DNA from: Mytilus trossulus
Taxonomy: Eukaryota
Direction of reading: 5' to 3'
Length of the DNA stretch: 64,000 nt
Assembly (NCBI RefSeq): GCF_036588685.1
Contig: NC_086376.1
Location: 91,863,630-91,927,629, forward strand
The notes beneath the pieces were generated by a model. The model was not told the origin of the DNA and did no database searches. It worked only from the letters and a program-made list of their open reading frames with translations. The position numbers were made by a program, and so were the translations under genes. Of this stretch, positions 11,483 to 63,100 are shown piece by piece (position 1 is the stretch's first letter; every line of letters begins with the position of its first letter).

Positions 11483-11903
11483 AAAGAAAAAAGACACTCC
11501 ATTGCACTATGTTGCAATTTTTGCAAATCTATAGCTTAATTGCCTCCCTTGAACAGATCCATTATTTCATTTTTGTCTCGCCTGCACAGAATGCAAAACA
11601 TATTGATTACAATCTGGCTACAGATTAACAATTTGTACAAAGGTTTATATTTCAGAAGGTAGAAGATCTGGATGCCTCATACCTTGTATGCAGCTGCCAT
11701 AGATCATAAACTATCTGTCTGTTATATAAAAATTACCATTATCCTCAACCTCATTTTCATGGTTCAGCAACTGTTGAAAAAAAGATTTTTTTTATATTCA
11801 CTGTTATATAGCCTTAGCCGATTTGGCACAACTTTTTGATATTTTGGATCCTTAATGCTCTTCAACTTTGTACTTGTTTGGCTTTATACATATTTTAATA
11901 TGA

Positions 11904-11947
11904 GTGTCACTGATGAGTATTATGTAGACAAAACGTGCGTCTGGCGT
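11904..11947 (+). ncRNA. Type I hammerhead ribozyme motif, degenerate (GAAA to AAAA; stem II mismatch)
   Basis: GTGTCA CTGATGA GTA-ttatgta-GAC AAAAC GTGC GTC^ TGGCGT. Confidence 0.7.
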
Positions 11948-12266
11948 ACTAAATTATAATCCTGGTAACTTTGATTACTATTTACACGACTGGGTCGATG
12001 CCATTGCTGGTGGACGTTTCGTCCCCGAGGGTATCACCAGCCCAGTAGTCAATACCTCGGTGTTGACATGAATATCAATAATGTGGTCATTTTTGTAAAT
12101 TTCCTGTTTACTAAAATTTGAATTTTCGAAAAAAAATAAGGATTTTCTCATCCCAGGCATAGATTACCTTAATTAATAGCCGTATTCGGCACAACTTTTG
12201 GGAATTTTGGATCCTTAATGCTCTTCAACTTTGCAGTTGTTTGGCTTTATAACTATTTTGATATGA

Positions 12267-12310
12267 GCGTCACTGATGAGTCTTATGTAATCGGAACGCG
12301 CGTCTGGCGT
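12267..12310 (+). ncRNA. Type I hammerhead ribozyme motif, degenerate (GAAA to GGAA; stem II damaged)
   Basis: GCGTCA CTGATGA GTC-ttatgta-ATC GGAAC GCGC GTC^ TGGCGT. Stem I GCGUCA pairs with UGGCGU. Confidence 0.72.
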
Positions 12311-13349
12311 ATCAAACTATAATCCTAGTACATTTAATAACTATCTTATCGGAAATAAAAGCATATTATTCTAAAACCAGTTGTTTGCATGATAAAGGTT
12401 AAGTTCTCATATATTATATGATGATATGATACCAAACCCCAAACGGGAGGGAATAAGTTGATTTAATTGGGGTCTGGAGCTGATATGCCAGTAACTGCCA
12501 GTAGTCCTTTGTTGATTTATGTGTTATTGTCATTTTGCTATGTTTCTGTGTTGCCTATTCTGACATTGGACCCGGACTTCATTTATCTGAGTTTTGCTGG
12601 GATTATTGCAGTTTTTTTGTTTATTCTACATTGGTTAGAGGTAAAGGAAAGGGTTGAGAACTCACAAAACATGTTGAAACCCGACGCATTGTTGTGGATG
12701 TTCCAGGTAGGGAGCATCTGGCCTTGTTAGTCTTGTATATTATAAGTTCAATTATATGTTTGAGTTCAGTGTGCCGTCCACTTTCACTGAACTATTGCAC
12801 ACTTTTCTCAAGACCAGCTTGATGCTGCCTCCTGGTAAGGCTTTTTTCACTGTGTTTAAGACCCAGTGGTGGAAATCGGGGTTTTCCGCCTTTTGGTCGG
12901 GTTGTTAACTCTTGACACATTCCCCATTTCCATTCTCAATTTTATCGTCAATAACACTGGTCTTATTAAACTCAATGAGAAAAATATCCCCGCAGATATC
13001 ACACAATAAAATTGTTTTTGTGCGTAAAGCAAAATATATAGACTGCTCAACAACGAAATAAAGTATTGACAACTCATGTGGAAACTCAACATATACGTCC
13101 ACGGCACTTACCAAAGAGTAAATTTTGAGCAATAATTTATGAAATGGAATGTCAACCAAAGATGAAAACTTGATCTTCCATCACTTTGCTTGATACCTAA
13201 ATCACATTGGTGTCCTTACGCACCACATTAGATTGCTCGAGCTATCGAGTGTCCCACGAAATAACATCAGTTTTATCAGGAGTTAAATCCGGGTTTCAAA
13301 GTTACCATGAGGGCATGCATCTACCTGATGTAGGGTTAGTGTAAATAGC

Positions 13350-13525
13350 AATAAAACCCGGTTTAAACCACCATTTCCTACGTTGAAAAAATGTCTGTTT
13401 TAAATCAGGAATACGAAAGTTGGTATTCACTCATTTGCCGATGATGTGTTCGAGCTTTTGAATGTGGACTTTGTACTTTCTGATAAGAATTTTCCTTGGT
13501 TGTCGATATTTTTGTTATTTTACAT
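13350..13525 (+). mobile_element. SINE fragment, probably Nin/Deu-domain type
   Basis: Conserved block AAAACCAGGTTTAATCCACCATTTTCTAC...AATGCCTGTACCAAGTCAGGAATATGACAG recurs at about 24680-24840, 26850-27280, 35030-35215 and 54670-54875. The family name is from recall, not a search. Confidence 0.55.
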
Positions 13526-13844
13526 TTTATGAACAAATTTTATTTTCTACCCCTAACCTAGTATTCTACCTTAAATTTTCGACGGTAAAGATGATTTCCT
13601 ATCAATAATTAAAGCAAAGTTTGTTGACCAAGTTAAAAAACAGCCGCATCTTTCTTGGCCGAGTTGAAATAAGGCTGCATTTGTTGACTTACATCTAGGG
13701 ACGGTTAGGAACATGAAAGGTATTTTTCAGCTCTAATAAGAATATTTCCATTTACTAAGAATATAGCAAAATTACAACAGCGTACGAGGAAGATATGGAA
13801 CCAATGTTTCGCAAAATTATAAAGTTGAAGTTATCGACTCGAAG

Positions 13845-14036
13845 GCATGTGGAGCAGGATCTGCGTACCCCTCCGGAGCACCTGAGTTTTTGGTGGGGTT
13901 CGTGTTGTTTATTCTTTAGTTTTCTATGTTTTGTCATGTGTACTATTGTTTGTCTGTCTTTTTCATTTTTAGCCATGGCGTTGTCAGTTTGTTTCAGATT
14001 TATAACTGTCCCTTTGGTATGTTTCGTCCCTCTTTG
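13845..14036 (+). repeat. Dispersed repeat (GTGGAGCAGGATCTG...CCGGAGCACCTGAG...TTTCGTCCCTCTTT)
   Basis: Similar blocks at about 21700-21900 and 36078-36226. At 21.7 kb it follows a Penelope-like RT relic. Confidence 0.6.
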
Positions 14037-14669
14037 ATAAACGTCTTTGCTACTTGGTTTTTTATTCGAGACTCACTGATGAGTCTGTTGTAGAGGGACG
14101 TGTGTCTGTCGCGAACTCAAAATTTCAATCCTGGTATTTATGAAGAGTTTATTCAATTGACTGTTATTGAATTTTTGAACCTGAGCTAACCACGTATATG
14201 GAACAATTATCGTAAACACAATTCTTTAGAGCGATTGATTTTGCCATTTTATTATAATTTGTTTTTGAAAATATTGCCCGGATTTCGGTGTTTTTTGTTA
14301 TTTTACTTTTGCTGAACCTTCACACAAATCTTATTATGTTTAAAAGTTTTATTTGAATCTTTGTAATTTTAAAGAATGTAGCAGGGTTAAACATGTTTGG
14401 AATGCTCTATAACAACCTGGTATAACGACACAACACATGGAGCCGGAATTGCAAGAAGCACAAAAAAAAACCCAACTAACTAATAGAAAAAATAACACAA
14501 AACACAGATATAAAAAAATGTACATATTTAAATGAATCATTGTTATAAATCACAAATAAACATTAAAAAGAGCAAATAATGATACAATATAAAGGACTGT
14601 TTTATCATTTTAAAATATTATGTCAAAAACTACAACTTACAACAGCCCAGTACTTCTGTCTGGACATGC

Positions 14670-14952
14670 ATAATCATTGAAATGGTCATATTTATAACTT
14701 AGCCGTTTACAAAACCTTGATTTTTTTTTAATACTAAGGCTTTTACACCTCAGGAATAGAGGGATATATTACCACAGCTGTATGTGACAATACATGTAGG
14801 AATTTGTGGTCTTCAATGCTCTTCAACTTCGTATTTGAATTGGTCTTTTTAACTATTTTTATTGAAGTGTCACCAATGAGTCTTTTGAAGATGAAACGCG
14901 CGTCTAGCGAAAATTAAAAAAATCAATTCTGGTATCTATGATGAGTTAATTT
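14670..14952 (+). mobile_element. Retrozyme-like repeat, second subfamily, degenerate hammerhead at about 14867-14909; another fragment at about 14050-14153
   Basis: GTGTCA CCAATGA GTC-ttttgaa-GAT GAAAC GCGC GTC TAGCG. Upstream aatgctcttcaacttcgta is shared with other copies. Confidence 0.65.
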
Positions 14953-15806
14953 GCCTTTGGTATTAATAAATAGATAAATAAACTCTTTCATCAAACTTTA
15001 AAAAAATCACCATTGAAACGAAGTATATACCAATACACATTACATGTCTTAAATCACAAACACGAGGTTTCAAGGTACATTTGTTTACCTGTTAAAATGT
15101 TGCCATTAAAACTCACATTGTAATATAGGATTTTCTTTTTAAGCTTTAATATTTGAAGGTGTTAATAAAGGCAATTGTAGTATAGCTCGGTTCAATAGTC
15201 ATAAATCGATTAAGCGAAAACAACTTTTGGGTTACACACTTAAATCGAGGGAATCCCTTAAACATGAAAAACCCGACAATGACGTATTGGAAAATTCGGA
15301 AGAAGTAACTCTGTGATATGTTTACTTCCGTAGTTTTTATGTTCTCAATGTAATGCTCTACTATACAAATTAAAATTCCCATAAAACTACTTAATGGTTC
15401 GTAGGTATCCGACAAAAGAATCCAATTAATACCTGTAATTACCTTTAAATGCTTGGACTATTTTTTAAATTATTAGTTGAATAAAACATTTATATGTATT
15501 CATTTGCCTTGTACCGACGTTGTAATGAGAGCACGTGCTATCACAATTTGTCATTTAGCTGACATGGGAAATGAGATATAAATTCGGTATGCCTTGCAAA
15601 TTTGCGAAAACCAAAAAAATAAATGAAAAGATATCTACAAAGAAAACATACCTACATTAATCCATCATGTGTATCAGAATTTTGTTCAAGATGTCATGCT
15701 TTTTAAAAAGACTCTTAACCTGTTATCTGGACGATGTTATTGTATATAGGACATATTTAGGAAATAAACGTTTATATCTGTTAAAAAACATTATTTTTAC
15801 ACTACA

Positions 15807-18299
15807 TCAAAAGAACCAAAGTCGAAGCTTTTGCCAAGCAAATTGGACTTCGTCCATCTCAACAGGCCATTGAATTAAAAGAACATCTTTCCAAATAGTC
15901 GAAAACTCAATTGGAATGGTGTCCAAAGGGATATCTCTTGTAATAACAACAATCTTCTGCAGATTTTTGGAAAACTTTTCATACTTAGCTCGCTCGATTT
16001 CAAAGCGAGTCCATTCATTTTTAACAATTGACGGTGTTACTAGAAATATAATGTGTCTGCATCTGTTAATAGACGTAGCTCTTTCACTAGCAATCGATTC
16101 GCCTACAATGAAATCTCTGTCTTCAAAGCACACTTTGAATCCCCATTCGTGCTCCACTTTCTCTTGCAATTCTTTTACAAAAGAAACGCAGTCATCTGAA
16201 TATGAAATGTAAACGTCATAATCAAAATTCAGCTCAAGACCTTTCTCAGCAAATCTCCGAAAATTTCGAAAGAGAAAGAACATTATCCTCCATCTGAAAT
16301 TGTATAATAGAGCAATGCAAAGCACACTCGATAAAACAGAAACCAATAATGAAATACCTATTTTGATCCAAACGGTATTATCGCAGTCAACGAAATAATG
16401 ATGTAAGTCTTCAGCGACATTTGTTGTATAGTTGATACTTTTTCTTGAAGAAACCCAACAAGAGTAATTACCATTGTTATCTAACTCTACTTTAGTTGTC
16501 AAAATCCAACGGAGAAATTTCGTTGTGTCACACGAACAAATTAATGGATTATTACTAAGATATAATTTAAAAGATCCATGTTTATTATGCATGTTATCAA
16601 TCCACACTCGTATATGCTTTCCAATTGTTGTTAATTGATTGTACGACAAATCAAGTTCATCTAGGCTTACAAATGTTGTAACAACCTCTGGAATAGTCTC
16701 AAGCAAATTATGAGATAGATTGAGGTGTTTTAGATTATGAAGTTGCCCGAGCGAATTGGCCTTGATTTTCCAGATATAATTATTCGATATATCCAAATTT
16801 ATTATGTTCGGACAAAACCTTAATATTGTTGTATTAGTTTGTAAAACATTGATCAAGTTTGTTTCTCTCAAGATAAGTGTTTTTAGATGGATTAAAAAGG
16901 GTATTTTTGCATCTCCAATTGTTTTTACTGAACTTATACCCGACAAATCCAAATGATCCAAACTATTAAATCCTTCCATAGTTATACGTGGAAAGAAATC
17001 GGTTTCAAAGTAAGATATTTCAAGGTGACGAAGGAAGCTATTTTTTGCCTTTAATTCTAGAAAAGAACCTTCAGTCATCATATGAGTTATTCTAAAAAAT
17101 TGAATTTGACTCGGAATTAACACTGTCATTGAATTATGCTGTCTTGCCCATTTACCTTGAACTTTTTCAACTCTTGTAACGTTATCCTTTGTTATTACGT
17201 TAAGGAAAGTCGGATTCTTGAATCCTAACGGGAAATATGAAAAATCTATTATTTTAATGTTGGTCATCTTGAAGGTAAACAAGACGAAATCAACTTCCCA
17301 GCTATCCACACTAAAACTATTAGCAGATATAATAACTGTTTCAAAGCACTCTGGACGTTGAAACAAAACTAACGATTTGTTTTTAACTAATATAATGTTA
17401 TTTGCGGATAAGTCCATTGTTTTAATACAGATTGTATATGTATATTTCATCATCTCTGGTGTAAGAATAACTGGATCAATTCTATGTTTTGAATCTGGAC
17501 GAGTTATTCCGCGAAAAAGAAGTGCGTCCATTGATTTATTCTGAAATGGACGAAGAATGTTTAGGGCCTGTGCTAAGTGAATATTGCTGTTAGTGAGATT
17601 TAGCACACTAAGATGTGGAAACGGAATTAAAACGCCACCTTCAATGACAACAAACTCTCTACAAGTTGTCATGTGGAATTCTCGTATATTTACCGGCAAT
17701 TCTGAAAATGTTTCATTGTAGAGATGGTTTACGTTGCAATAATCAAGTTTCAATACTTGTAAATTGTGCAGTTTCTTGAACTGCTGTCCAAACGTTGCAT
17801 TAAACACAAGATCGATGCTCAGCTCACGCAAGTTACTGAGTCCGCTGACGGGAATTTTATATGGATTGTAGTCTCGAGATTTCATATTTCTACTGATGTC
17901 TAAAACAGATAAATTATTTAGCGGCTCAAACACTCCTTGAGGATACGATTCAGACACATTTAGATAATTTCTAGACAAAGACAAATGTCTCAATAATGAT
18001 AAGCTACTGAAAGCCGTAGTATGTAACCATCTGATATCATTGTTATCAATTAGTAGGTATTCTAGATACTTATATCTACGAAACCCGCTGGCATCCAGAC
18101 GTGTCAGTCTATTATAACTTAAATCTAATTTCTTTATATCAGGTGGTAAATTCGTCGGAATCGATGTAAATCCTTGATGTTTACACGAAGCCTCTTTATA
18201 GCCCAACATATTTAGTGTGATATTGCATTTTGCAAACACAGTTCTATATGGAAACAGACATGTAATACACACAACTATGAACTTCCACATATTATCCAT
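15807..18299 (-). CDS. Toll-like receptor (single cysteine cluster type), paralogue A, 830 aa, intronless
   Basis: Signal peptide, LRRNT (C..C..QGFTSIP), multiple LxxLDLSxN repeats, LRRCT (NPLICSC), TM helix (IGISLLVSVLSSVLCIALLY), and TIR (YDVYISYS, DRDF..G, EWTRFE, WQKL). Confidence 0.95.
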   Translation of the reverse strand: MDNMWKFIVVCITCLFPYRTVFAKCNITLNMLGYKEASCKHQGFTSIPTNLPPDIKKLDLSYNRLTRLDASGFRRYKYLEYLLIDNNDIRWLHTTAFSSLSLLRHLSLSRNYLNVSESYPQGVFEPLNNLSVLDISRNMKSRDYNPYKIPVSGLSNLRELSIDLVFNATFGQQFKKLHNLQVLKLDYCNVNHLYNETFSELPVNIREFHMTTCREFVVIEGGVLIPFPHLSVLNLTNSNIHLAQALNILRPFQNKSMDALLFRGITRPDSKHRIDPVILTPEMMKYTYTICIKTMDLSANNIILVKNKSLVLFQRPECFETVIISANSFSVDSWEVDFVLFTFKMTNIKIIDFSYFPLGFKNPTFLNVITKDNVTRVEKVQGKWARQHNSMTVLIPSQIQFFRITHMMTEGSFLELKAKNSFLRHLEISYFETDFFPRITMEGFNSLDHLDLSGISSVKTIGDAKIPFLIHLKTLILRETNLINVLQTNTTILRFCPNIINLDISNNYIWKIKANSLGQLHNLKHLNLSHNLLETIPEVVTTFVSLDELDLSYNQLTTIGKHIRVWIDNMHNKHGSFKLYLSNNPLICSCDTTKFLRWILTTKVELDNNGNYSCWVSSRKSINYTTNVAEDLHHYFVDCDNTVWIKIGISLLVSVLSSVLCIALLYNFRWRIMFFLFRNFRRFAEKGLELNFDYDVYISYSDDCVSFVKELQEKVEHEWGFKVCFEDRDFIVGESIASERATSINRCRHIIFLVTPSIVKNEWTRFEIERAKYEKFSKNLQKIVVITRDIPLDTIPIEFSTIWKDVLLIQWPVEMDEVQFAWQKLRLWFF

Positions 18300-20143
18300 T
18301 CACTAGTTAATGCGAAATATATTCAATGCTTAAATACCTTATGTTAAATATTTAATTATTGCACAGACCAATGCTGTCATGGTCGAAAAAAGGTGCAATG
18401 ATTTAAAGGTTAAAGCCACTCAAGTGTTTAAAATTGTGATTATTTACATATTATGATCACAATAACCTGTTTAAAAGTAACTGAATACTGATACCACTTT
18501 CAACACGAATGACAAAACATTAAATATATACACACCGGGGTATCTTTTGTTTTCACAGGTAGTAATGCCGTCATACCGAGAAGAGATAATATAGTGACGT
18601 TGTTATGAAATAGAGTAGTATGATAGTGTTTTTTTGTAAAAGTCATATCAGACTTCAAATTGAAAAAAAGAAAAGATTTGAATATGTTTTATATAATTGA
18701 ATAGCTGTTTTACAACAAAACAAATGTACGTGAATTTTCTTGTTAAAAAATCTTTAATTATCAAAATCGTCATAAATATACTGCTATCATGTGTTCATCG
18801 CCGATATATTCTCGTATGCAGTGACCTGAACTATGAAACATTCTACATAACTAATGAACACATTTTGTTTTGCATTGACCTATGTAGGTTCGCACTTTGT
18901 AAATACAGCTGTTTAACAAACCACACCTCTTTTGGGAGATATATTATATTCATAGATATTTGGTTTTGTTTATGTACTGGGTTCCAGATATGATCTATTT
19001 ATGTCATCCAATAGAGACATAACTTGGGATCGTAACCAATATAGATACACATGGTAGCGGCGCAAAATGAATTTTGATGAAGACCTAAAGTGAAGGAGAC
19101 GTGGTTAATAATTTAAGTTTCAGTTTTAAATCTTAGACGTTTCGGGCATTTTAATGTTAAAAATACGCAACACAGTCCTGTATGTTTTGATCTATGAATG
19201 AAATCGTAGTGCATATCAACTTTCCATTCTGGGATAAATATGCTTTTTTTTTTACGAAACATCAAAGTAAATGTGGAAAAGTTTTAGCCGTAAAGGGATT
19301 TCTAATAGAAAATTGCATTGTCTAATTAACAAATGTGAAAATTGGGCGTCTTCACGAATGTTATCTCGAAATTGCAAAATAAAATCGGCATACATTAGTT
19401 GGTGATAGCGAAATAAGTAATGGTCAGTTCACCTGGAAACTCAACATGGACGCCCACGACACTAACCAAAGAGGAAGTTTGATACGTCCAATTTCCTTTT
19501 AATATTTACACTAAAAATGACTAACTCTATCTTCCATCATTTTATCTGGTAGCCGAATCCAGGATAGACCATTCACACACCGTTATATTGCTTTGTTTGT
19601 CAAATCGTTCAATTCAATGTGTGGTATATAGTCAGGTTTCAGAGTTGGTATGAACCAATTAAACTACATTAGTAAGGGGGGGAGGGGTGTCAAAGGGCAA
19701 CTAAAATGTGGATACTTAAAAATCGAAAGATCTGTTGGGGTATATTGATAACCTCAGTCTATTTACCATTGGAAAAACATAAGAAGAAAATATTGCCTTC
19801 ACTACAAGTACGTTAGTATACCCAATTTAAACTTAAAATCTGTGCAAAACTTTGTTTCATAAAACAAAATGGTCAAAGTAGTTACACACATATAGTTTAA
19901 GGAAAGGATAAAACATCATTTGTAAAAACGAAGACACTCTGATTCAAATAACTGATTTTGTGAAACTATAGCATTATCGAGATGCTTTGTGTTTTACACA
20001 ACATATTTGGGACGTTTTGATGAAGTGTTTGTTTTGATATATTTTTAGCTTTTTAGCTTTATCCTGTAAATAAAGATAATGTCCTATTATTATGAAATAC
20101 AAAGTCATGTGACTTAAGTTGTGAGTGACTATGATGACATTAT

Positions 20144-21280
20144 ATGAATAGAATATGTCCTTTATGCCAAAAAGAGTTGGAAGATGAATTCCATTTTTTC
20201 ATAACATGTTCAGAAATTAATAAAACTAGGATCAAAATGTTCGATGAAATTTCTAATATTGTCCCTTGTTTTAATTCCATGAGTGAAGAAAACAAATTTG
20301 ATTTTATATTTTCCTGCGAAGAATGTGATATTTTACTTATCATTGTTAACTACATAAGTGAAATGTATAATGAGAGAAACAATTATAATGTCAATATATG
20401 AACTGTGTAATGTATATTATAACATATTTTTTGATACATAAGCGTAATATTTTAATTGATAACTTTAAGGTTCATCATAACCTTTTTGCTAAAATGGCCG
20501 TATTTACACTCCAAATTTTACTCTGAGTACAGACTAACCTATACACCTGCAACAGTTTTAAGGGATGGCAGGAACTAGATATCTAAATTTTAAATGCATT
20601 TTATGTTTCAGAAAATTATAAACTTTTCTAGATTTTGCTATCCATTTTTTTTCGTTCCTGCAGAAGGTGCAAAAATTAACTAAGTAGTGAAAACGATTGA
20701 GAAGCTCCCCTCATATAATCAATGTTGTGAGTAGTATTGATTTAAATGGACAATAGATGGACAATAGACACCTGTAAACAATAGGTGTTTTAACAGGTTT
20801 AAACTGTGTAGCTGAGTGGACCGTATCAAATGAAACTCGGGTGTTTGTTTATTTTGATATCTTTTGCAGACTGGAGAAAAATGCACATCAAAATGCAGGT
20901 AAGTTTTTAATTTTCTGAAACGTAGACTTCATATAACTTTTATATATCTAGTTCCTGCCATGCCTTAAAACTTTCCTGGATGTACCAGTTTGTCTGTACT
21001 CATAGTAATTTTTGAGGTGTAAACACGGCCATATTTTTCAATTCCTTATGATGAACCTTAAAGAGGAGGCATGCTGTCAAAAAAAGTTTTATAATTAATA
21101 CTTTTAATCTATGTTTTTGTTTTTCTTTCAATGCTACATGTTTGTAGTGTTTAATGACTATCGTTTTGTAATTTTAATATGCCTGTCTGTTTGTTTGTTT
21201 TTGTTGTGTATTTTAGTAACAATCCTATTGTTTGGATTTCAAACTAATAAATATCTTATTCTTATTCTTATTCTTATAAT
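20144..21280 (+). mobile_element. 5'-truncated non-LTR retrotransposon (LINE) 3' end, interrupted by a MITE
   Basis: RICPLCQKELEDEFHFFITC is the C-terminal CCHC motif of LINE ORF2. The 3' end has AATAAA followed by a (CTTATT)n tail at about 21247-21278. Confidence 0.65.
20469..21057. mobile_element. MITE with TTAA TSD and GG...CC termini (Kolobok-like)
   Basis: TTAA|GGTTCATCATAA ... TTATGATGAACC|TTAA with long imperfect inverted arms (GGCAGGAACTAGATAT / ATATCTAGTTCCTGCC). Confidence 0.8.
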
Positions 21281-21344
21281 CTTGCGCCGAACATGAAATA
21301 CTAGATACCAAAGTTACATCTGCCTCATATCATGACTAACTACT

Positions 21345-21640
21345 ATGGTTGGTTGCGTAAGGATGATTTCAGCTTTCAATTTATTCAATTTATTTGTCTA
21401 TGTAACTTCATTACATTAGGGCCTGTATATGGAGTATTCATCTCCTAGTTGATACAATATTTCAAAACTTGTGTTTCTTATCATGATGTTTACCACTCAC
21501 AACAAAGCTATTGTACCAATGATTCAAATTTGAAAAGTTAAAGACGGACGCTATCACAGGTTAGTTGACTGTTAATGAATATCTATGTCACAGATGATCA
21601 GTAATATGTTCCTATTGTTGTAACCACTATCCGTATTTTA
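21345..21640 (+). pseudogene. Degenerate reverse-transcriptase C-terminal fragment, probably Penelope-like element
   Basis: DDFSF...PVYGVFIS*LIQYFKTCVSYHD resembles the PAYGVYISQLIRY..AC motif. A second relic lies at about 43270-43510. Confidence 0.55.
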
Positions 21641-23002
21641 TCTTGATAGTGACATCAAGAGAATTATCGTCAGCATGAGCAACACCATGAGTTCAACAGA
21701 CGTACCATCCATTGCATACCCTTTCGGTGCACATGGCATCACACTGGATTTTTTGTCGTGTTGGTGTTGATCAAATATAGTTTTTTCAGTATATTTTTTA
21801 GGTAATGAATGTGGAATCGTTTGACTCTTAATCGTTTTTCGTATTTTCGGTGGTTCTTTCAGCTTTTCTGAAACTGACGAGTTTTGAATATACACTTGCT
21901 AATTATTTATTTTTTATTTGAGTTGAAAACTCAAAAGCATTAAAGCATCATTTTCTTATTCTAATGTATTTTCAAAAGCCTTTTTGAGTTGTATCAGCCT
22001 TAATTAAAAAAGAACAACGTCAGGTACACATATTTTATTCATTAGGGCCATTTATTATTAGTATAACAATTTAGAATACAATTCTACCAAATTTGAAATC
22101 CCGCGCATCAAATTCAAATTATTACTTGTGTCGTTTGGTTTGGTAAAAAAAATATGCAAGTAACTTCCTCATTCATATTTTTAAACACAGATCATGGACT
22201 TTCCAAGATATAATACTACAAACAATAGCTTGACAAAATTCCCGTTTGAGCTTTTGAATGTATATCAAACATGGAAAAACCCGTCCAATGACGTAGTGGT
22301 AGGTTTAATAGAAATCAGGGTTCAGTATTTAAAGTGTACTTAACATTTTTTGAATCCTCATTATATATATGATAAAGTTCAAACATAAACTCATACAAAA
22401 TGATATGGTTTTTAATACTGTACACCAGACATGCGTTTTTAAACCATTATTTTCTTTTATTCTTCTTTAGTTTTATGATTCCGACATATCCTTTCCTATA
22501 GGTAAATTATCACTTCTAATACAATATCTTTCAAAGTCGTGTGATTTAAAGATCTCCGTAACCTGTTGGCAGCTATTGTTCGATTTATAACTACATGTAC
22601 CCTTCATGACAGACTCTAATCGTTAGATATATAAATATCTTTATTTACCGACCATTCAATTTGATACTACTTATATTCAATTGGTTTCCGTTTTTTCGTA
22701 CATATTCTAAGTATTTTTTTTCAGTGCTTTACAACAAGCGGTTGGTCATCCATATTATTTAACACAGCATAATCAGAGGAATAGTGAACAACGCTCTAGT
22801 TACATTTTTAACTAACATCTAATTTTAATAACAGTGCTCTAGCAATTAAATCAAATGGAACCAATGAGGATTACAAAAGTAGGTAATAAATCATTTCTTT
22901 TTTAACTTTTAAACATTCGGTTAAATGTATTTGTACGATCAATTACGATCCAACCATATTATTAGTTACATAGTGTGCTAGTGACCTAATACGGTATATA
23001 CG

Positions 23003-23078
23003 GTCACTGATGAGTCTTATGTAGACGACACGCGCGTCTGGCGTACTAAATTATAATCCTGGTACCTTTGATAACTAT
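23003..23078 (+). ncRNA. Type I hammerhead ribozyme-containing fragment (GAAA to GACA) inside an inverted-repeat element
   Basis: GTCA CTGATGA GTC-ttatgta-GAC GACAC GCGC GTC^ TGGCGT. One substitution from a perfect core. Confidence 0.75.
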
Positions 23079-25430
23079 ATGTAGCTTCGCTCTCATCCCA
23101 TATGGAATTTACTGACCCCATATATACCGTATTACGTCACTATCACACTTTGTAACGAATTTATCTTGCAGACTATCTTAACGTGTACAATGTAGTCTTG
23201 TGATCTATCAAAATACTGTTAACATTAAGAAAGTAAGTCCATTGATCCGACAAAAACAACAGCCAACGATAACAACATGTTAGGTTTAAATCTGTTTAAT
23301 GAATTTAATTCAACCTTAATCATCAATTTATTCATTTGTTGAAACCTTTAAGATTTTTATCTCAGTTCCGTTTTGTTTTTATAAAGGGACGTAACACGAC
23401 TATTAACTGTGTATGAAGTAAGCCCTGCCTCCCTACTACCTAATATGGAATGTAAAGGAACGTAACTCCACTACTAACCGTGTATGAAATAAGCCCCGCC
23501 TCCCTAATAACTTAATAGCAAATATACGTGGTCTTCACGCGGATGCTTTTAACCAATCACATTCCTAGACATGTATATAGGAGGTAAGATAATTGAAAAC
23601 TATTCTAACATTCTTTGAATTATTCCCATACATTTAACATATCATATAAAACACAACAAAGGAGTTTAGATAAAGGACAGTCAAGATCTTTTTTGAACAT
23701 TTTGGTATGAGACACATTTTGCACTTTACCATCTTTAAAAAATAAATACGAAAAGCATACAATTCCGACAATAAAATTGAGAATGGAAATGGGGAATCTA
23801 CCAAAGAGACAACAACCCGATCATAGAGCAGACAACAGCAGAAGGTTACCAACAGGTCTTCAATGCAACACGAAATTACGGCACCCGGAGGCGTCCTTCA
23901 GCTGGCCCCTAAACAAATATATACTAGTTCAGTGATAATGAACGCCATACTAAACTCCAAATTGTACAAAAGAAACTAAAAGTTAAAATAGTACCGGAAT
24001 AACCAAGGCCAGAGGCTCCTGACTTGGGACAGGCGCAAAAATGCGGCGGGGTTAAACATGTTTGTGATATCTCAACGCTCCCCCTATACATCTGTCCAAT
24101 GCAAATATCTGCATTAACTATTTTCTCTTTATTTTTTATACAAAGTATGTGGTTATGCATAAGCATTAAAATGTTCATGCATTACATGACTTTCGAGTTA
24201 TTTTAGTTTCAAAATTGGATGATTTATATAAAAACACAATTTGTTTTTTTTTAATTTCCGGAATTAATACCAGCTATAACTTTCAAACAAAAAGAGATAT
24301 TTCACCCCTTTTTGGCAACGTGTTCTATACTTTGAAGGCCTTTTAGTTAGTCCCTGAATTAAAGTTGGACTGCGATAAAAAAAAAAATGTATTATATACT
24401 AATTTATGCGTTCATCGTGTAGAACGCAACATGCGGGATATCGGCTATGCTCGACACGGGGTGGCGATTTGAAGTGGAGAAAAACTACTAAGAAAAAATA
24501 AAGTATCAAAGTTTCTTTTTAGACATTTGTTAGAAACAAATAATGTATTGCACGGAAGGAAATGAATCATTATATATTTCCTGCAAGCAGACGCAGAAAT
24601 TTTCAGTGCTCTCAAACACCTCTCTCTAGTTTTTCCTGTTGAAGATTTTAACGCTTCGTATACAAGTTTCAGGGTAAAAAAAACCTTTTTCTACATTTGA
24701 AAATGCCTGTACCAAGTCAGGAATATGACAGTACTTGTCCATTCGTTTTTGATGCGTTTTGTTATTTGATTTTGCCATCTGATTATGGACTTTCCAAATT
24801 GATTTTCCCCTGAGTTCAGTATTTTTGTGATTTTACTTTTTTTTACGATTTTTTCCTGGTAAAAATAAATTTTGACAAAAGAAAAACAGTATAATTTTTA
24901 TATTATTATTTTTCTTCTTTCAAGTTACTTGGTCTAAAATAAGAGAATTTCCTTTCACCTCTTATGTATTTATTCTGGATACAAGTATTGCATTTATGAG
25001 TTAGAAAGACAGTTTACTTAAACATTGTACTTGTTTACAAATAATAAATTAACTGTTTTAGCGATTATTCAAGCTCGTGAATATAACATGCATGTTAATG
25101 TTTCTAATATGTAATAACTACTTCTCTGAAGTTTAAAGAATTACACATCAGACAACATTGACAAAATAATAGTTTATTGAAAAAATATTTGATTTTCTAT
25201 TTAATACTCGTCAGTTTAAAATGCTTAAAGTGAAATTCGTCAGACAATGAGAACTAATTCAGTTATTTTTGGTAAAAAAAACGACATGTGTTTTATAACT
25301 AGGGTTGTTGTTCTCTTTGATACAGTAGCCAGCCTAAACAAATTGAAACAAATATCTTTATAATATTCAAAATATATGTGAAGATAAAGAATGTACTAGT
25401 AGTCATTATAATAAAATAGAGAATGGAAGT

Positions 25431-25665
25431 ACTGTGGTTTCATTGATATTCGTTGGATACCAATTTTCGTGGATTTCATGGGTACAGGAGAACCACGAAT
25501 TCAAATGTTCCTCGAATAACAAATTTTGTAAAGGACTGTAAACAGACTTTGCTTAAATCACGAAATTAAAAGATGCATGATAATCAGTTGCTATTATAAG
25601 TTGCATATTTGTTTTTTCTCGATCCACGAAAATTGGTTCCCACGAAAATAAATGAATCTACAATA
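25431..25665. mobile_element. Small TA-flanked MITE (Tc1/mariner-like); similar-style element at about 36732-36953
   Basis: TACTGTGGTTTCATT..TTCGT ... ACGAAAATAAATGAATCTACAATA imperfect inverted ends. Confidence 0.5.
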
Positions 25666-26271
25666 ATAATAATAATACTTTATTCCGAAAGCAATACAGC
25701 TTATAGGATACATATACACAATTTTACACCAATATAAGAATTTCACAAGAGATATATAATATGTATAAAAATAAATAGTCATTATGTATGTGTGATGCAG
25801 CATGCTTTTACACTGATTTGCTGTGTCTGATTTGCTGTGTTTGATATTTAAGTTGTAGTTTCTTCATGTTATATTAGGATTGAATACTTAGTTACTTAAA
25901 AAGAATATTTATATCTTATAAAAAAGTCCCTTTCTGTTGTTGTGGTTTCATATTATTTGTGCATTGTTATGATCTGGATCATGAATGAGAAAATGCTGTA
26001 GAATGTCAAATGAATATATTCTACGAACTGTTTTGCTTTCAAATAAAGTTATTATCATAATGAAATATTCAACACCGTTGACTGCTGAAATATACCATTA
26101 TGATTTATTGTTTATTAAATGCACGACATTTGAGCTGTGGTGGTTATTTGTCTAATTCACAATCATAACTCATCTCCTCATTTTAGATGATCAAATGTTA
26201 TAGTTTTCAGGTGTGTGGTAGATAGCTTTTTTGTCTTGTACCGACATACATTTAGTTAAAGATATCTCTAC

Positions 26272-26445
26272 TTTCAACACTACTGTGCTATTTCGTGGCC
26301 GTCAGTTTTAATGACGGAGGAAGCCAGAGTGCCCAGAAAACCACCAGTCTACGGTAAGAAAATTAACAATCCTAAGCAAGGAGTCGAGTTTACCTGTCCC
26401 GTGCGGGGTTCGAAATCACAACCTCTGTGTTGGTTGACTATTGAT
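26272..26445 (-). mobile_element. tRNA-derived SINE fragment
   Basis: The minus strand reads GAGGTTGTGATTTCGAACCCCG (B-box-like), followed by GGTGGTTTTCTGGGCACTCTGGCTTCCTCC, a common molluscan SINE core. Confidence 0.6.
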
Positions 26446-26724
26446 ATAGTAGTTCTAAAAACAAACTAAAAAAAACTATATAAAAAAAAATCTATCTTTA
26501 TTTATGGACAGAAAAAAATAAATGAGAAAAACCATCCGTCTGCTCTCCAGAAATCAAATTATTTTTTTTATCTTTTGTAGGTGTAATATCGCCAATTCCA
26601 TTAATATTCCACAATTTTCCTCTATCATTTTCACAGCTCTTATAATATTGTAAAGGAAGTATAACTTCTTGGAAACCAGCTAAATCATGACAACATTATC
26701 TTTGCAGATTTGCAACCAATGTTT

Positions 26725-27195
26725 GTTTTTAATGCTCTTTAACTTTTGTATTTGAAGTGCACTTAAAATGTTTTACTAAAGCGCCTCTGATACGAAACTC
26801 GCCTCTGACTTACGGCAGCATCATTGTAAATATAAGGAATTTGGTGAGACTGTCATCAAAGTGAGAGGTTAAGCGCTATAAAACCAGATTTAATCCACCA
26901 TTTTCTACATTTGAAAATGCCTGTTCCAAGTCAGGAATATGACAGTTCTTGTCCATTCGTTTTTAATGCTCTTTAACTTTGTATTTGAAGTGCACTTAAA
27001 ATGTTTTACTAAAGCGCCTCTGATACGAAACTCGCCTCTGACTTACGGCAGCATCATTGTAAATATAAGGAATTTGGTGAGACTGTCATCAAAGTGAGAG
27101 GTTAAGCGCTATAAAACCAGATTTAATCCACCATTTTCTACATTTGAAAATGCCTGTTCCAAGTCAGGAATATGACAGTTCTTGTCCATTCGTTT
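26725..27195. repeat. Near-perfect tandem duplication, ~234-bp unit
   Basis: aatgctctttaac... at 26731 and 26965; essentially identical apart from one T. Confidence 0.9.
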
Positions 27196-27773
27196 TTGAT
27201 GTGTTTTGTCATTTGATTTTGCCATGTGCTTATTGAATTTCCGATTAGATTTTCCTCTGAGTTCAGTATTTTTGTGATTTTACCCTAATGATTTTTCGTA
27301 GGATATTCTTGAATTCAACTTCCACTATAAAAGTAATAAAGTATGTTATTTTTAAGCATCTAAAGTCCAATTGGATTTGTCTCATTGACAATCAAACCAC
27401 ATCTCCTCATTTTATATGATCAAATTTTTAACTTCAGTTCAACGAGGAATATCTTGCTAACATGATCTTAATATATGCTAATTTTTAAACATTTTTTGTT
27501 TCAAATGGCTTTCAACTTCTTAATTGATGTGAACTTAAAACTGGTTTAATCCATCGCTACTGATACAAAACTCGCTTCTGGTTTTCAAAATTTTAAGATT
27601 TAATCAAGTTTTGAATGATGTTCTGAAAGTCACCTACTACTGTAAAAAATAAAGTAATGGTTTTTTTAAGCATCTAAAGTCCAATTTGTAAGAATTTAAT
27701 TTATAGCATAGTTAATTATTATAGTTACGGATCGTCCATTTGAAAATAGCGTTATTTTCTGTAGTTGAAATGT

Positions 27774-28078
27774 TGAAACCGAAAGATTGAAACTTATGTA
27801 ACAAACATTTAAACTTGTAAATAAAACAATACCAAAAGAGGGACGAAAGATACCAAAGGGACAGTCAAAAACAAATTATATCACAGCTACTCCCCTTATT
27901 GGAGAACATCATTTTGTTTTCAAACTGAAACCGAAAGATTGAAACTTATGTAACAAACATTTAAACTTGTAAATAAAACAATACCAAAAGAGGGACGAAA
28001 GATACCAAAGGGACAGTCAAAAACAAATTATATCACAGCTACTCCCCTTATTGGAGAACATCATTTTGTTTTCAAACT
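27774..28078. repeat. Perfect tandem duplication, 152-bp unit
   Basis: tgaaaccgaaagattgaaac... at 27774 and 27926. Confidence 0.9.
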
Positions 28079-28390
28079 ATTGTACGGTATTAATGTCAAT
28101 GAATGTTATACTTTTAAAATATGTATTTATTGCCATAAACAGTCCGTTACTATGAATGATTTTATTTTTTTCTCTTTTATAATTCTGTATTGCTTTTATA
28201 TAATTACAAGTTGAACCCTAAATATTAATGTGCTGTAAAAAATGATGAATGTATATATTCTATGATACGAAATATTTATGAACAAAGATATTATTATATA
28301 TTGATCAATATTTTGTTTTAATTGACATTTGGGATTATACAAGATTATAATTTTTTCAAATGATATTGTTTTCACTGTCATTTCTGTATG

Positions 28391-28727
28391 ATTTACAATC
28401 ACTGGGTCGATGCCACTGCTGATGGATTTTAATACCCCGAGGGTATCCACTGTGATGACTTCAGTTACTTAGTATCATTGATATGTTCAATTATAAATTG
28501 ACTATTAACAAACTTTGAACTTTTCTACCTCAGGAATAGGGTACCTTAGCTGTATTTTTCAAACTTGTAGGATCTTTTGGTCCTCAATGGTCTTCAGTTT
28601 CGTACTTTATTGGCCTTTTAAACTATTTTTGATTCGAGCGTCACTGATAAGTCTTTTGTAGACGAAATGGGCGACTGGTATAAACAAAACATCTCAATCT
28701 TGGTATCAATTATGAGTATATCTACAA
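28391..28727 (+). mobile_element. Single retrozyme-like monomer (~337 nt), second subfamily, degenerate hammerhead at 28638-28679
   Basis: Starts ATTTACAATCACTGGGTCGATGCC and ends ATCTACAA. Core GCGTCA CTGATAA GTC-ttttgta-GAC GAAAT GGGC GAC TGGTAT. Confidence 0.7.
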
Positions 28728-30102: not shown

Positions 30103-32595
30103 TCAAAAGAACCAAAGTCGAAGCTTTTGCCAAGCCATTTGAACATCTTCCTTCTCACTCGGCCATTGAATTAAAAGTACATCTTTCCAAATAGTCGAAA
30201 ACTCCATCGGAACAGTGTCCAAAGGGATATCTCTTGTAATAACAACAATCTTCTGCAGATTTTTAGAAAACTTTTCATACTTTGCGCGCTCAATTTCAAA
30301 TCGAGTCCATTCATTTTTTACAATTGACGGCGTTACTAGAAATATGATGTGTCTACATCTATTTATTGACGTGGCTCTTTCATTAGCAATTGATTCGCCT
30401 ACAATGAAATCTCTATCTTCAAAGCAAACTTTGAACCCCCAGTCGTTCTCTACTTTCTCTTGCAAATCTTTCACGAAAGAAACACAGTCATCTGAATATG
30501 AAACATAAACGTCATAATCAAAATTCAGCTCAAGACCTTTCTCGGCAAATCTCCGGAAATTTCGGAAGAAAAAAAACATTATCCTCCATCTGAAATTGTA
30601 TAATATAGCAGAACAAAGCACACTCGATAGAACAGAAACCAATAATGAAATGCCTACTTTTATCCAGACAGTAGTATCACAGTCAACGAAATAAGGATGA
30701 AAGTCTTCAGCGACAGTTCTTGTATAGTTGATACTGTTTCTCGAAGAAACCCAACACGAGTAATTACCATTGTTATCTAACGTTACGTCAGTTGTCAAAA
30801 TCCAACGTAGAAGTGTAATCGATTCACATGAACATATAAACGGGTTAGTATTTAGATGTAATTGAAAGGTTCCATGTTCTTTGTGCTGGGAAGATATCCA
30901 ATCTAGTATATTCTTTCCAATTGTTGTTAATTGATTATGCGATAAATCGAGTTCGACAATGCTATAAAACGTAGTTACAACATCTGGAACAGTCTCAAAC
31001 AAATTATGCGATAGATTGAGCCGTTTAAGATTATGAAGTTGTCCAAACGATTTTGTTTCGATTTTCCAGATATAATTATATGATATATCCAAATTCATTA
31101 TATTTGGACAAAAACTGAATATTGATGAATTAGTTTGTAAAACATTGAACAAGTTTGTTTCTTTCAAGATAATTGTTTTCAGATGAATGAACGTCGGAAT
31201 TTTTCTGTCTCCAATAGTTAATACAGAACTGATTCCTGATAAATCCAAATACTCCAAACTATTAGATCCTTCAAAAGTCAAAAGTGGGAATATATTTGTT
31301 TCGAAGTAAGATATTTCAAGGTGACGAAGGGAGCTGTTTATGGTTTTTATTTCCCGAAAGGCATTTTTAGCCATAAGATGCGTTATTCTCAAAAATAGGA
31401 TTTGACTCGGAACTGTCACTGCAATTGGTATAACCCTTCTCCCCCATTTTCCTTTCACTTGTTCAACACTTGTATAGTTGTCTTTCGTTACTACGTCAAG
31501 GAAAATTGGATTTTTGAAACGTAAAGGAAAATATGAAAAATCGATTATTTTAATGTTAGTCATCGTGTATACAAATTTAAAGAAATAACCAGCCCAGTTA
31601 TCCAAACTAAATCTATTAGCAGATAACATAACGTTTTCAAAGCACTCTGGATGTTTAAACAGGACTAACGATTTGTTTTTAACTAATATAATGTCATTGT
31701 CAGAGAGGTCTAATGTTTTTATACAAATAGTTGATATATAACTCATCATCTCCGGTGTAAGAATAACCGAATCTAAGCCTTGTTTAGACTCAGCATGAGA
31801 TATTCCGCGAAACAGCAGCGCATCCATTGATTTTTTCTGGAACGGGTGTAATATGTTTAGGGCCTGTGCTAAGTGAATATTGCTGTTAGTAAGATTGAGC
31901 AATTTTAGACGTGGAAATGGAACTAAAACACCACTTTCAATGACAACAAAGTCTTTACACGTTGTCATGTGGAATTCCCGTATATTTACCGGCATTTCTG
32001 AAAATGTGTTATTGTATAAATGGGTAACGTGACAATAATCAAGTTTCAATACTTGTAAATTGTGCAGTTTCTTAAACTGATGTCCAAACGTTGCATTTAA
32101 AACTAGATCGATGCTCAGCTCACGCAAGTTACTAAGTCTGCCGACGGGAATTTTGTACGGGTTATAATTTATAGTTTTCATATTTCTACTTATGTCTAAA
32201 ACTGATAAACTCTGTAGAGATTCAAATACTTCATGGTGATACGACTGAGAAACAGACAGATTATTTCTAGACAAAGACAAATGCTTCAATAGTGATAATC
32301 CATGAAAGGCCTTATGATGCAACATGTTGATTGAGTTATGATCAATTATGATATCTTCTAGATACTTATATCTATAAAATCCGTTGGAATCCAGCCTGCT
32401 CAATCTATTAAAACTTAAATCCAATTTCATTATATCGGGTGGTAAATTTGTTGGAACCGATGTAAGTCCTTGGTATCTACATAAAGCCGCCTTATGGCCG
32501 AACAAATTAAGAGTAATATTGCATTTTGCAAACACAGTTATATATGGACAAACACATGTAAAACACAAAACCATGAAGGTGAACATATCATCCAT
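30103..32595 (-). CDS. Toll-like receptor paralogue B, 830 aa, intronless
   Basis: Same SP-LRRNT-LRR-LRRCT(NPFICSC)-TM-TIR architecture. Cytoplasmic part differs from paralogue A at about 13 of ~165 residues (counted by eye). Confidence 0.95.
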   Translation of the reverse strand: MDDMFTFMVLCFTCVCPYITVFAKCNITLNLFGHKAALCRYQGLTSVPTNLPPDIMKLDLSFNRLSRLDSNGFYRYKYLEDIIIDHNSINMLHHKAFHGLSLLKHLSLSRNNLSVSQSYHHEVFESLQSLSVLDISRNMKTINYNPYKIPVGRLSNLRELSIDLVLNATFGHQFKKLHNLQVLKLDYCHVTHLYNNTFSEMPVNIREFHMTTCKDFVVIESGVLVPFPRLKLLNLTNSNIHLAQALNILHPFQKKSMDALLFRGISHAESKQGLDSVILTPEMMSYISTICIKTLDLSDNDIILVKNKSLVLFKHPECFENVMLSANRFSLDNWAGYFFKFVYTMTNIKIIDFSYFPLRFKNPIFLDVVTKDNYTSVEQVKGKWGRRVIPIAVTVPSQILFLRITHLMAKNAFREIKTINSSLRHLEISYFETNIFPLLTFEGSNSLEYLDLSGISSVLTIGDRKIPTFIHLKTIILKETNLFNVLQTNSSIFSFCPNIMNLDISYNYIWKIETKSFGQLHNLKRLNLSHNLFETVPDVVTTFYSIVELDLSHNQLTTIGKNILDWISSQHKEHGTFQLHLNTNPFICSCESITLLRWILTTDVTLDNNGNYSCWVSSRNSINYTRTVAEDFHPYFVDCDTTVWIKVGISLLVSVLSSVLCSAILYNFRWRIMFFFFRNFRRFAEKGLELNFDYDVYVSYSDDCVSFVKDLQEKVENDWGFKVCFEDRDFIVGESIANERATSINRCRHIIFLVTPSIVKNEWTRFEIERAKYEKFSKNLQKIVVITRDIPLDTVPMEFSTIWKDVLLIQWPSEKEDVQMAWQKLRLWFF

Positions 32596-45805: not shown

Positions 45806-47234
45806 GGTCCAGATTGAAATAAACAATTAATTTCCCCATAGGCGACAATGGTAGCCTTTTTCGAGATACAGACTATAGAAAGTTGATTTTGTTAACGAAA
45901 CCTTGCTAGAATAAAAGAAAAGTTATTAGGACAGTATTTTTTGGTCTAAAAAATATAGGTTCGCGTTGCTTTTCTTAGCGTATTTTGTACTTATCTCCCA
46001 TGCCTATCATTAATTTTGCCCTTAAAAATACGTGTCTTGTCCTAGCGTTGAAAAGTCATCTCAGTGCCTTTAGGGCTACGGAATAATTTTTATTTTGCCT
46101 TTTGTATAAAGCAGAGTGCACGAAGTCTCTATTAATAAAAAATAACGGGCGCACATATCGACCAATCAGGATTCGCCATACACTTAATTCTGAATACCAT
46201 GTTATGCTCAAAAAATGGCTGCGCCCATAAAATCTAATGGTGTATTGTAACCTTCATGTATGCCCACCACTTTCTTTTTATGATTGTATTGTATGCCATG
46301 GGTTTCCTTCTGACCATTCTTCATTATGCTTGATTTTCTCTAGCAGATGATAAAGGGTGTCTTCTTGATCTCGGGAGGTCTTACACACCATTTATGGCCT
46401 GATTTTTATTCTCAAAACGACTTATAGTGGGATGGTGATGACTAACAATACGTGCGGTTGTCACAGCGACATTCCTGCTTCTCTCATGCTGATTATCTGC
46501 CTTATTGCTGCAGTTTAGACTTGTGGAGGACCCATAACAAGGTTATTTAAAGTATTGTAAAAAATGAAAATAAAAACATCTGTTTTGCTGTTTACGGGTA
46601 CAGTACACGGGTGTCATTCGGTTTATCGAGAGAAATGGTCGTGAAAGAATATCTAACGGCGGTCAAGTATTGAGAGACGATCGTGAAAGTTCTGGTAACG
46701 GATCGAGAAAGACATTTAATCGAGAACACATATGAAAGTTCAGTAAATATTCTAATTTAATTAATTACACAGACACATTTACGACAAAATAAAACTGTCT
46801 GTCAAAATGGTTCAACATTATGATCAGTATGTCATAATATCCAGTTTCAAAAGAAACATAGTTATTACAAACCGACAAAAGACAGATTGCTTCTCGACAT
46901 TTCAATGACATAAAAAATGTAAACAAAACGATTTTTTTTCACAAATTCGACTAGATAAACTACGTTTATCAGAATAAGGGCATTGTATTTGAATTAATTA
47001 AACGGTTTTCATAGTTATTTTGTTTATATTTAATCTGAAACTTGGTAAATAAGGAATTATCTACACAAAATTAATTTTTTGGATCGTGAAGGATCACGTA
47101 CCGCATTTTTGAAGATCGTGAAAACTGGATCGTGAAAGATCTGATGATACGAAGACGTTCACATTATTCTTCCATTATATGATAATTGATATTTGTTATT
47201 GATATTGAAAAAGGCTAGATCGGTCAACATCCTC

Positions 47235-47527
47235 AAAAGGTTTAAGCCAAACAAGTAAAATGTTGAAGAGCATGGAGGATCCGAAATTCCAAAAAGTTGT
47301 ACCAAATAAGACTATGATAATCCTTAGTTTTTCGAAAATTCAAAGTTTTGTAAACAAAAAATTTGTATCAAATGACCACATTATTGATATCCATGTCAAC
47401 ATCGAAGTGTTGAATACTGGGCAGATGATACCCTCGGGGACGAAACGTCCACCAGCAATGGCATCGACCCAGTGGTGTAAATAGTTATCCAAGGTACTAG
47501 GATTATATTTTAGTACGCCAGACGCGC
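47235..47527 (-). mobile_element. Retrozyme-like repeat fragment (minus strand) nested in the CAC-ended element
   Basis: Reverse complement starts GCGCGTC^TGGCGTACTAAA and is collinear with 11935-12250. Confidence 0.8.
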
Positions 47528-48467
47528 AAATACATTAAAATTAGTATTTGGGAATTCGTGAACATGTTGTTTGTAAAATAGTTGGATGATAGTAGGATGA
47601 AGTTTTTTTTTTTGTCATGTGAAGTACTCACTTATCATGAGTTATAGGAAACCCATATTTTGTATATTGGATCCTATACTAAATGTCCGTCAGACAGGAT
47701 TCACCTGACCTTGAATTTGCCTCATTTCATGCATGAAGATTCATGTTAGTGGTCAAGTCCGTATCAAGGATTCGTTTAGCTTTAGGATAACTGTCTGTTG
47801 TTATGACTTTAAGGTGTATATTTTCGACTTTTGCATAGTTTCAACTTACATTGAACTAATTATCATGCATCATTCGGCAATGTTTGTTCTATGCTGTTTG
47901 GCCTTTTGAATATATACATTTTGTACGTGTATGCTATAGCGACAAGGTGTTTCGTGTATGGTGTACATGTCTGTCTGCATGTATTTTATATGACCATGAT
48001 GACTTCAATTGTGTTTGATTTATTAAATGATAGTAAGATGTCTATGCCTGGCTGTCGGTCAGGGTTCATATACTTTTGACCTTATGTTCCGAATTAATTG
48101 GCCAAGCATAACTTTCACAATTGTCAGTTTCTAAGGCACTGTAAGGATCGTTACACATGTATTTGGTGTACGGGATATTTGTAGAGATATGTATGGCATG
48201 GTTCATCTGACCATGACCTTTTTTTATGAGTCATTGACAATCTTAAGCGAATTCGACACTTTTAGTAAAACCCTTAATATTATAGACGTTCAACAAATAT
48301 ACTATGATCATAAGTTAAGCAAACAAGACATTACAGCATTTGCACTTTGGTCTCCTATAGCTAGTATGTCCTATATAGTTAAATCAATCCTTATCTGCGT
48401 TGTTTATAAAGAACTTAAAAAGTTCTGTTGCACAAAATGTTGGATATCGTTCAATCCAAAATTACAC

Positions 48468-62728: not shown

Positions 62729-62917
62729 CAAATCACAATCCAGAAGAGTAAAAAAACATAACTAAATAAAATGGTAAAAAGGGACCTGACGTTGGTCTCC
62801 ACGTGTGTAGGGAAGATGGGACTCATGTCATGCTTTTTTATAACCTTTTTGGTTGATTTATTTTGTTAATAACTTAATATCTTTATTAGAGATTGTTAGT
62901 ACCAAATGACTGTCAAC

Positions 62918-63074: not shown

Positions 63075-63100
63075 TCAAATGTAAAGTAAAGAATAAGATG

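Follow-up and report, generated by a model that had tools for sequence, protein, structure and literature searches.

We analysed a 64,000-nucleotide (nt) stretch of the Mytilus trossulus genome (contig NC_086376.1; hereafter the window, in whose coordinates all positions are given) that carries copies of a small hammerhead-ribozyme repeat, likely the retrozyme described in mussels, and find that these copies mostly share one fixed 3′ end about 41 nt downstream of the ribozyme cleavage site. The fixed end is confirmed as real and general across the organisms tested. We read it, with a probability of about 0.7, as the product of internal initiation of the kind used by Penelope-like elements (PLEs), with the enzyme acting in trans on uncut or circular retrozyme RNA. 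Both the element and the PLE mechanism are known; what is new is the junction evidence that joins them.

A fixed 3′ end in genomic copies and in sequencing runs

Self-BLAST of the window, together with an nhmmer profile built from the natural tandem of a metagenome locus (L002), identified seven independent pieces of the repeat (Table 1). Five of the seven end inside a TATTTAC motif or at most 6 nt beyond it, 40–52 nt past the cut, and in simulation the chance of finding five of seven ends together in some 10-nt window on a 355-nt circle comes to ~8 × 10−5. By contrast with this common end, 5′ ends placed by nhmmer are spread across the unit and run upstream through the cut site, and partial tandems occur both at 11811–12344 and in L002. 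The copies belong to two subfamilies, and because subfamily 2 is a few nucleotides longer between cut and site, its ends at +47/48 fall in the same TATTTAC motif as the +40/41 ends of subfamily 1.

The original prediction, made from the letters of the window, had placed the end of two subfamily-1 copies exactly 40 nt after the cut, and these coordinates hold (the cut C at 12304 goes with an end at 12344, and that at 23038 with one at 23078). It had given three subfamily-2 copies an equivalent end at about +47 to +50; this is right for 14153 (+47) and 14952 (+48), but 28727 lies at +52, ~6 nt past the homologous point, and the cleavage triplet of that copy, taken to be GUC, is actually GAC (28673–28675). 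A minus-strand copy proposed as the exception is one (47528–47234), though not the only one, as the fragment at 26962–27048 ends near +10. This fragment is duplicated at 26725–26814 (E 0.017) through a 233-bp tandem and was counted as one copy.

To locate junctions outside the window, sequencing runs were aligned to the monomer at 11815–12176, which has the site in its middle. Four runs from four studies were used, of 24 runs listed: DNA runs X1, X2 and X3 (contigs; three organism codes and three studies) and RNA run X22 (raw reads). Loose ends are described here from 24 listed rows of 1,980, which do not give the fraction of copies that stop at the site. A 3′ junction at 11982 (+41) was present in 306 of 46,737 contigs in X1, 198 of 38,408 in X2 and 212 of 62,051 in X3, with flanks that are long (median 214–255 nt) and mutually unrelated (agreement 0.37–0.39). 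In X22, 216 reads end at 11982 and 185 at 11984, out of 5,663 (agreement 0.40 and 0.45). Among the rows listed, 11982, joined in X22 by 11984, is the only 3′-side loose end with long unrelated flanks, the others being places where the alignment breaks but the letters carry on as element (agreement 0.52–0.92), and neither side of the cut site at 11941 shows a loose end. If the rows listed are the six strongest of each run, the peak in the DNA runs exceeds every place outside them by a factor of at least 1.8 to 2.3. The pattern that would have spoken for a different end, namely 3′ ends distributed uniformly or piled up at the GUC, was looked for in part, and all three DNA runs instead show the peak at +41.

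RNA run X22 carries a further trace of the site. Depth on the minority strand falls from 540–677 to 235–283 across 11983/11984 (~2.3-fold) and remains reduced beyond it; the cut produces no step. Taking the library to be stranded, we read the minority strand as host transcripts that sample genomic copies and the majority strand as whole-unit element RNA. Depth in the DNA contigs is unusable as copy number.

Independent copies in metagenome contigs gave a similar picture. The scan was anchored upstream of the cut and was thus able to catch copies ending at the cut; it yielded eight loci, three of which (L002, L005 and L008) were excluded from the count, since the contig ends within their anchored copy. 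Four of the five remaining anchored copies, each with a visible junction, end in the motif (L001, L003, L004 and L006, the end in L001 being ambiguous by ~9 nt); the fifth, L007, stops between +11 and +23, where the join looks chimeric, so that it and the fragment at 26962, both poor copies, end near +10. A second L003 copy also ends in the motif, while a second L001 fragment and two internal L008 joins lie elsewhere, giving five of nine ends at the motif when all further fragments are counted. We do not rely on a binomial P for these loci (5 × 10−6 for five of nine), which assumes uniform ends when ribozyme anchoring favours nearby ones. Pattern scans of viral contigs and genome contigs at the DNA level returned no match.

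Some of these contigs are unusual in themselves. L008 120–335 (minus strand) is a composite in which the ribozyme start is joined to sequence ~5 nt before the fixed site, possibly through a deletion or a template switch. In L005 and L007, both low-coverage contigs of marine metagenomes, retrozyme sequence adjoins coding DNA of bacterial appearance, probably through chimeric assembly.

Identity of the repeat

Measured between successive cuts, the repeat unit is 355 nt long in L002 and 363 nt in the window, and all four runs contain head-to-tail joints. The type I hammerhead model RF00163 matches at full length in L002, L004 and L006 with 33.0–33.3 bits (E 1e-5), the gathering score of 34 lying just above; the degraded window copies score 17–21 bits, and no match in the window attains the gathering score. 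No stop-to-stop frame of 120 or more residues overlaps any copy in the window, and the few frames of 70–105 residues that do overlap copies are not common to different copies. The element is transcribed: 5,663 reads in ~6% of run X22 cover all 28 bins with a strand bias (library strandedness again assumed), and reads cross the unit joint, which circles and multimers fit equally. The features of metazoan retrozymes that we tested are thus all present, namely a type I hammerhead, a tandem unit of 150–450 bp, the lack of a coding frame, and transcription.

By its description, the closest known element is the retrozyme of Mytilus galloprovincialis (PMC7229834), reported in the text available as a type I hammerhead repeat of 350–390 bp with two families, thousands of copies and expression, and with self-cleavage and circular RNA. 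A cloned monomer carries the name 353 there, as against a length of 355 nt here. Judged on size, ribozyme type and the two subfamilies, our repeat is likely this mussel non-LTR (long terminal repeat) retrozyme; two run labels, ‘mollusc metagenome’ and ‘gill metagenome’, are consistent with that assignment.

The runs also point to diversity beyond the window. In X22 a row of 252 reads clipped before 11989 was considered as a 5′ pile-up and rejected, as the clipped letters are a homologous element variant (agreement 0.88). These reads carry a third variant just before the site, which suggests an expressed third subfamily absent from the window. Across 11839–11988, the stretch compared, and at further positions, variant letters at intermediate frequency (for example at 11873, 11890, 11949, 12052 and 12080) are alike in three organism codes, and the similar frequencies imply that the subfamilies predate or cross the split of these organisms.

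Proposed internal initiation and its alternatives

PLEs had already been proposed as partners of retrozymes, with circles as templates, in PMC7229834 and PMC7761336, which name no priming site in the text available; the main text of PMC7229834, as available, does not map genomic ends, which are mapped here. A 2026 preprint by Li, Clavereau and Pollet (10.64898/2026.07.22.740005) regards retrozymes as non-autonomous PLE sequences, including a kinship in Xenopus. It arrives at the same partner from co-occurrence and the phylogeny of pseudo-LTRs (pLTRs), mainly in vertebrates, but names no mollusc, maps no ends and says that the mechanism remains to be worked out. Literature searches, outside Repbase, most subscription journals and some supplements, turned up no earlier account of a fixed end in retrozymes or of their ends being mapped; a curated non-autonomous Penelope consensus with such an end may exist.

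The nearest biochemical precedent is Poseidon, a PLE of Anolis (PAc; PMC11167929). In vitro, reverse transcription of its RNA initiates internally, past the hammerhead on the downstream side and within an AC-rich stretch; genomic ends fall on these starts, uncut RNA is the main substrate, and no ends lie at the cut. The systems differ in that PAc is autonomous and has two starts defining a 30–40-nt tail, whereas the mussel element has one visible site at +41, lacks an open reading frame (ORF) and makes a small RNA reported to circularise. PMC11167929 puts the PAc cut at 26 and a start at 111–118 nt of the ORF, which by our arithmetic corresponds to ~+85–92, and the nearer start to ~+45–60, compared with +41 here. 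Canonical PLEs likewise carry a hammerhead near their 3′ end (PMC8557442, text available in part). The same source describes MRC1-type non-autonomous PLE derivatives, which are similarly head-to-tail, pLTR-forming, 5′-truncated and non-coding, but belong to the Chlamys clade, in which hammerheads are mostly absent, and have a demonstrated likeness to an autonomous family.

On this model, a Penelope-type reverse transcriptase/endonuclease supplied in trans would nick the target DNA and bind predicted stems just 3′ of the site. Synthesis of cDNA would begin at the fixed internal point, beside an AC-rich tract, and copying would run upstream through the intact or re-ligated ribozyme and stop at variable points, so that fragments, monomers and partial tandems would all share one end. 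The template would have to be continuous through the cut, either circular or as an uncut multimer, because a self-cleaved linear monomer primed at +41 would give only 41-nt copies; the ribozyme would then serve to make the monomer or circle rather than the primed end. The PLE-like features that we find are the fixed 3′ end shortly downstream of a hammerhead and the 5′ truncation with partial tandems. That two subfamilies with different local sequence end at a homologous motif also counts in favour of this mechanism. The element would thus work like a non-autonomous PLE, with membership awaiting a matching autonomous family. The proposal that integration or reverse-transcription priming starts from an internal site of a circular or multimeric RNA, and not from the self-cleaved end, is borne out by the fixed 3′ end and by variable 5′ ends that cross the cut; as a mechanistic clue it has support but is not new in kind, having been shown for a PLE (PMC11167929).

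Other processes could in principle leave one fixed end. A minor linear transcript, terminated or processed at +41 and copied from its true 3′ end by LINE-type target-primed reverse transcription, would give the same fixed 3′ end with 5′ truncation, and majority-strand depth in X22 does dip to 949–1051 just past the site. Depth recovers to 1332–1558 by 12010–12048, however, and no place where many RNA molecules end is listed in that run; in ten junctions that we read, the end is followed by neither poly(A) nor a repeat tail, and the motif has only three T, while the unrelated flanks argue against shared read-through from a master locus. We consider this origin unlikely. Rolling-circle elements are known in which one end is fixed and the other varies, units occur in tandem and the target is not duplicated, so that the fixed end could instead mark the origin of Helitron-like DNA transposition, with the ribozyme as a passenger. 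Helitron termini comprise a TC start and a CTRR end and insert cleanly at a fixed dinucleotide. At our site neither a TC start nor a CTRR end is found on either strand, flanking bases vary across the ten junctions (by eye), the insertion at 23003 appears to have deleted target DNA, and the end lies on the expressed, ribozyme-sense strand, as in the PLE arrangement, all of which make Helitron-like transposition very unlikely.

We give about as little credence to later breakage or microhomology recombination at an AT-rich hotspot that trims tandem arrays. The ends do wobble by 0–2 nt within an AT-rich motif, in a genome that is 68% AT, but the many other AT-rich tracts of the unit have no listed peak, and a hotspot should also produce copies that start at the site, for which no 5′ peak appears among the DNA rows listed. 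Least credible of all is that the peak is artefactual and comes from aligning to this reference copy or from the assembly of contigs. Mismatches private to the reference do create clip rows elsewhere (11841 and 12057), and contigs often break in repeats; at 11982, by contrast, the clipped letters are long, unrelated and not element sequence, the peak recurs in raw reads, and assembled sequence gives a matching end at the ten junctions that we read base by base.

Several observations weigh against PLE-type initiation or narrow its support. None of the eight long window frames scanned encodes a PLE protein, and the rows listed contain no second start site 30–40 nt away of the kind that defines the PLE tail. 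If those rows are the top six per run, other places hold at most 136, 103, 120 and 151 ends in X1, X2, X3 and X22, so that ends at the cut are bounded only below 103–151 per run. X1 possibly derives from the same source as the window, although X2 and X3 show the peak without it. Target-site duplications, which in PLEs are frequently hard to discern, do not rise above a random-pair null (0 of 8 two-ended copies, which are old and give low power), the stem 3′ of the site has weak covariation (2 of 31 pairs), and several copies end elsewhere: 47234, 26962, L007, the second L001 fragment and the two internal L008 joins.

The predicted folds bear on how an enzyme might recognise the RNA. A stable stem is predicted from +48 in both folded monomers, whether linear or circular. 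The fixed site is mostly unpaired in one of them (0.8), while in the other about half of it is paired (0.4). Taken over the whole unit, folds do not consistently outdo those of shuffled sequence (z −2.85 and −0.54). The stem is a candidate for enzyme binding, a role that we can only guess at from these models. An AC-rich tract starts 2–3 nt past the site, and the anole PLE likewise starts in an AC-rich stretch, an apparent likeness between the two.

Evidence on the target side comes mainly from one insertion. At 23003 the left arm of an inverted repeat stops at a GTCA shared with the start of the retrozyme fragment, and this arm lacks at least 16 nt whose mirror image is present in the right arm. 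From this single case, and assuming symmetric arms, we infer a target deletion with 4-nt 5′ microhomology, which fits target-primed insertion. As to the preference of PLEs for AT-rich or ATT targets, five 3′ flanks in the window are 50–75% AT against a background of 68%, and an AT-rich consensus of the 11982 flanks, considered as a sign of target choice, says nothing on the target.

The window also holds a monomer (28391–28727) proposed to be circularly permuted, with both ends at the fixed site. The permutation is real as sequence, but the DNA rows listed show no 5′ pile-up at the site, and by arithmetic one of eight two-ended copies would have a 5′ end within ~10 nt of it by chance about one time in three. 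The copy suits once-round-the-circle copying and is a lead, as a single case that could be chance. It is possible, though in our view somewhat improbable, that the closed viroid-like circle is itself the template, with a telomerase-related PLE enzyme binding the stem, starting at +41 and rolling round to write monomers and multimers. Letters shared between tandem units (one informative in the window tandem, three to four in L002) leave circle and multimer not separable. If the circle is the template, rolling-circle reverse transcription of a ribozyme circle in an animal would here have left its first genomic footprint, and the fixed end would mark out the minimal cis signal for integration of a small circular RNA.

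The describers of animal retrozymes noted that the repeats lack any motif revealing the mobilising machinery (PMC7761336, text available in part). A single-base start site supports the PLE hypothesis at the level of junctions and excludes the self-cleaved end as the place of priming. It also yields an exact prediction that an in vitro assay already in use could take up, comparing circle, uncut dimer and cleaved monomer, and tells annotators where the real 3′ end of the element lies. A PLE specialist would expect the result, yet it turns the open question of how retrozymes spread into a single-base prediction.

Features of the window and its surroundings

Table 1. Retrozyme copies and associated features, by window position
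Feature	Position	Strand	Details and basis
Subfamily-1 copy, ~1.5 units, 5′-truncated partial tandem	11811..12344	+	Ends at +40 of second hammerhead; self-BLAST, nhmmer (11807–12346), alignment
First type I hammerhead, degraded	11904..11947	+	Predicted cut after 11941; RF00163 17.2 bits, E 0.37
TATTTAC motif holding the fixed end, here inside the tandem	11979..11985	+	Junction peak 11982 (+41, ±1); loose-end table
Predicted long stem and short hairpin, candidate enzyme-binding module	11989..12067	+	Starts 7 nt past fixed end; folds
Second type I hammerhead	12267..12310	+	Predicted cut after 12304; RF00163 20.5 bits, E 0.031
Subfamily-2 fragment, 5′-truncated	14060..14153	+	Cut 14106, end +47; alignment, nhmmer
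Subfamily-2 copy, ~0.85 unit	14645..14952	+	Cut 14904, end +48; alignment, nhmmer
Inverted-repeat element, host of the 76-nt fragment	22961..23160		Self-BLAST 88% over 43 nt; arm alignment
Subfamily-1 fragment, 76 nt, within inverted-repeat element	23003..23078	+	Cut C 23038, end +40; alignment
Weak degraded fragment inside another repeat, second exception	26962..27048	+	Ends near +10; nhmmer E 0.0015
Subfamily-2 monomer, permuted, both ends at fixed site	28391..28727	+	GAC triplet, end +52; alignment, nhmmer
Subfamily-1 copy, exception	47234..47528	−	Starts ~7 nt before cut, crosses site, stops before next hammerhead; alignment, nhmmer

The retrozyme copies lie between and around the genes of a Toll-like receptor (TLR) cluster. 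Three uninterrupted 830-residue frames, at 15807–18299 (minus strand), 30103–32595 (minus) and 40104–42596 (plus), combine LRR and TIR domains and are ~82% alike in DNA. Considered as possible PLE proteins, these frames proved to be Toll-like receptors instead.

Other repeats are frequent in the window. A transposase frame of 301 residues with DDE_Tnp_4 and HTH_Tnp_4 domains and two adjacent upstream frames (2355–4053, minus strand) is probably a broken Harbinger-type element, and the segment 2–551 is repeated at 48656–49219. The 233-bp tandem at 26722–27201 (99% identical) contains a degraded retrozyme-like fragment that lacks most of ribozyme stem II and is fused to a dispersed repeat, found also at 24683, 34967, 50946 and 54604; the tandem is either a recent duplication or an assembly artefact. 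An exact 152-bp tandem duplication at 27774–28078 is possibly also an assembly artefact. The regions 8272–9036 and 61835–63572 hold a 147-bp satellite of 5.3 copies and minisatellite arrays of 32, 17 and 46 bp.

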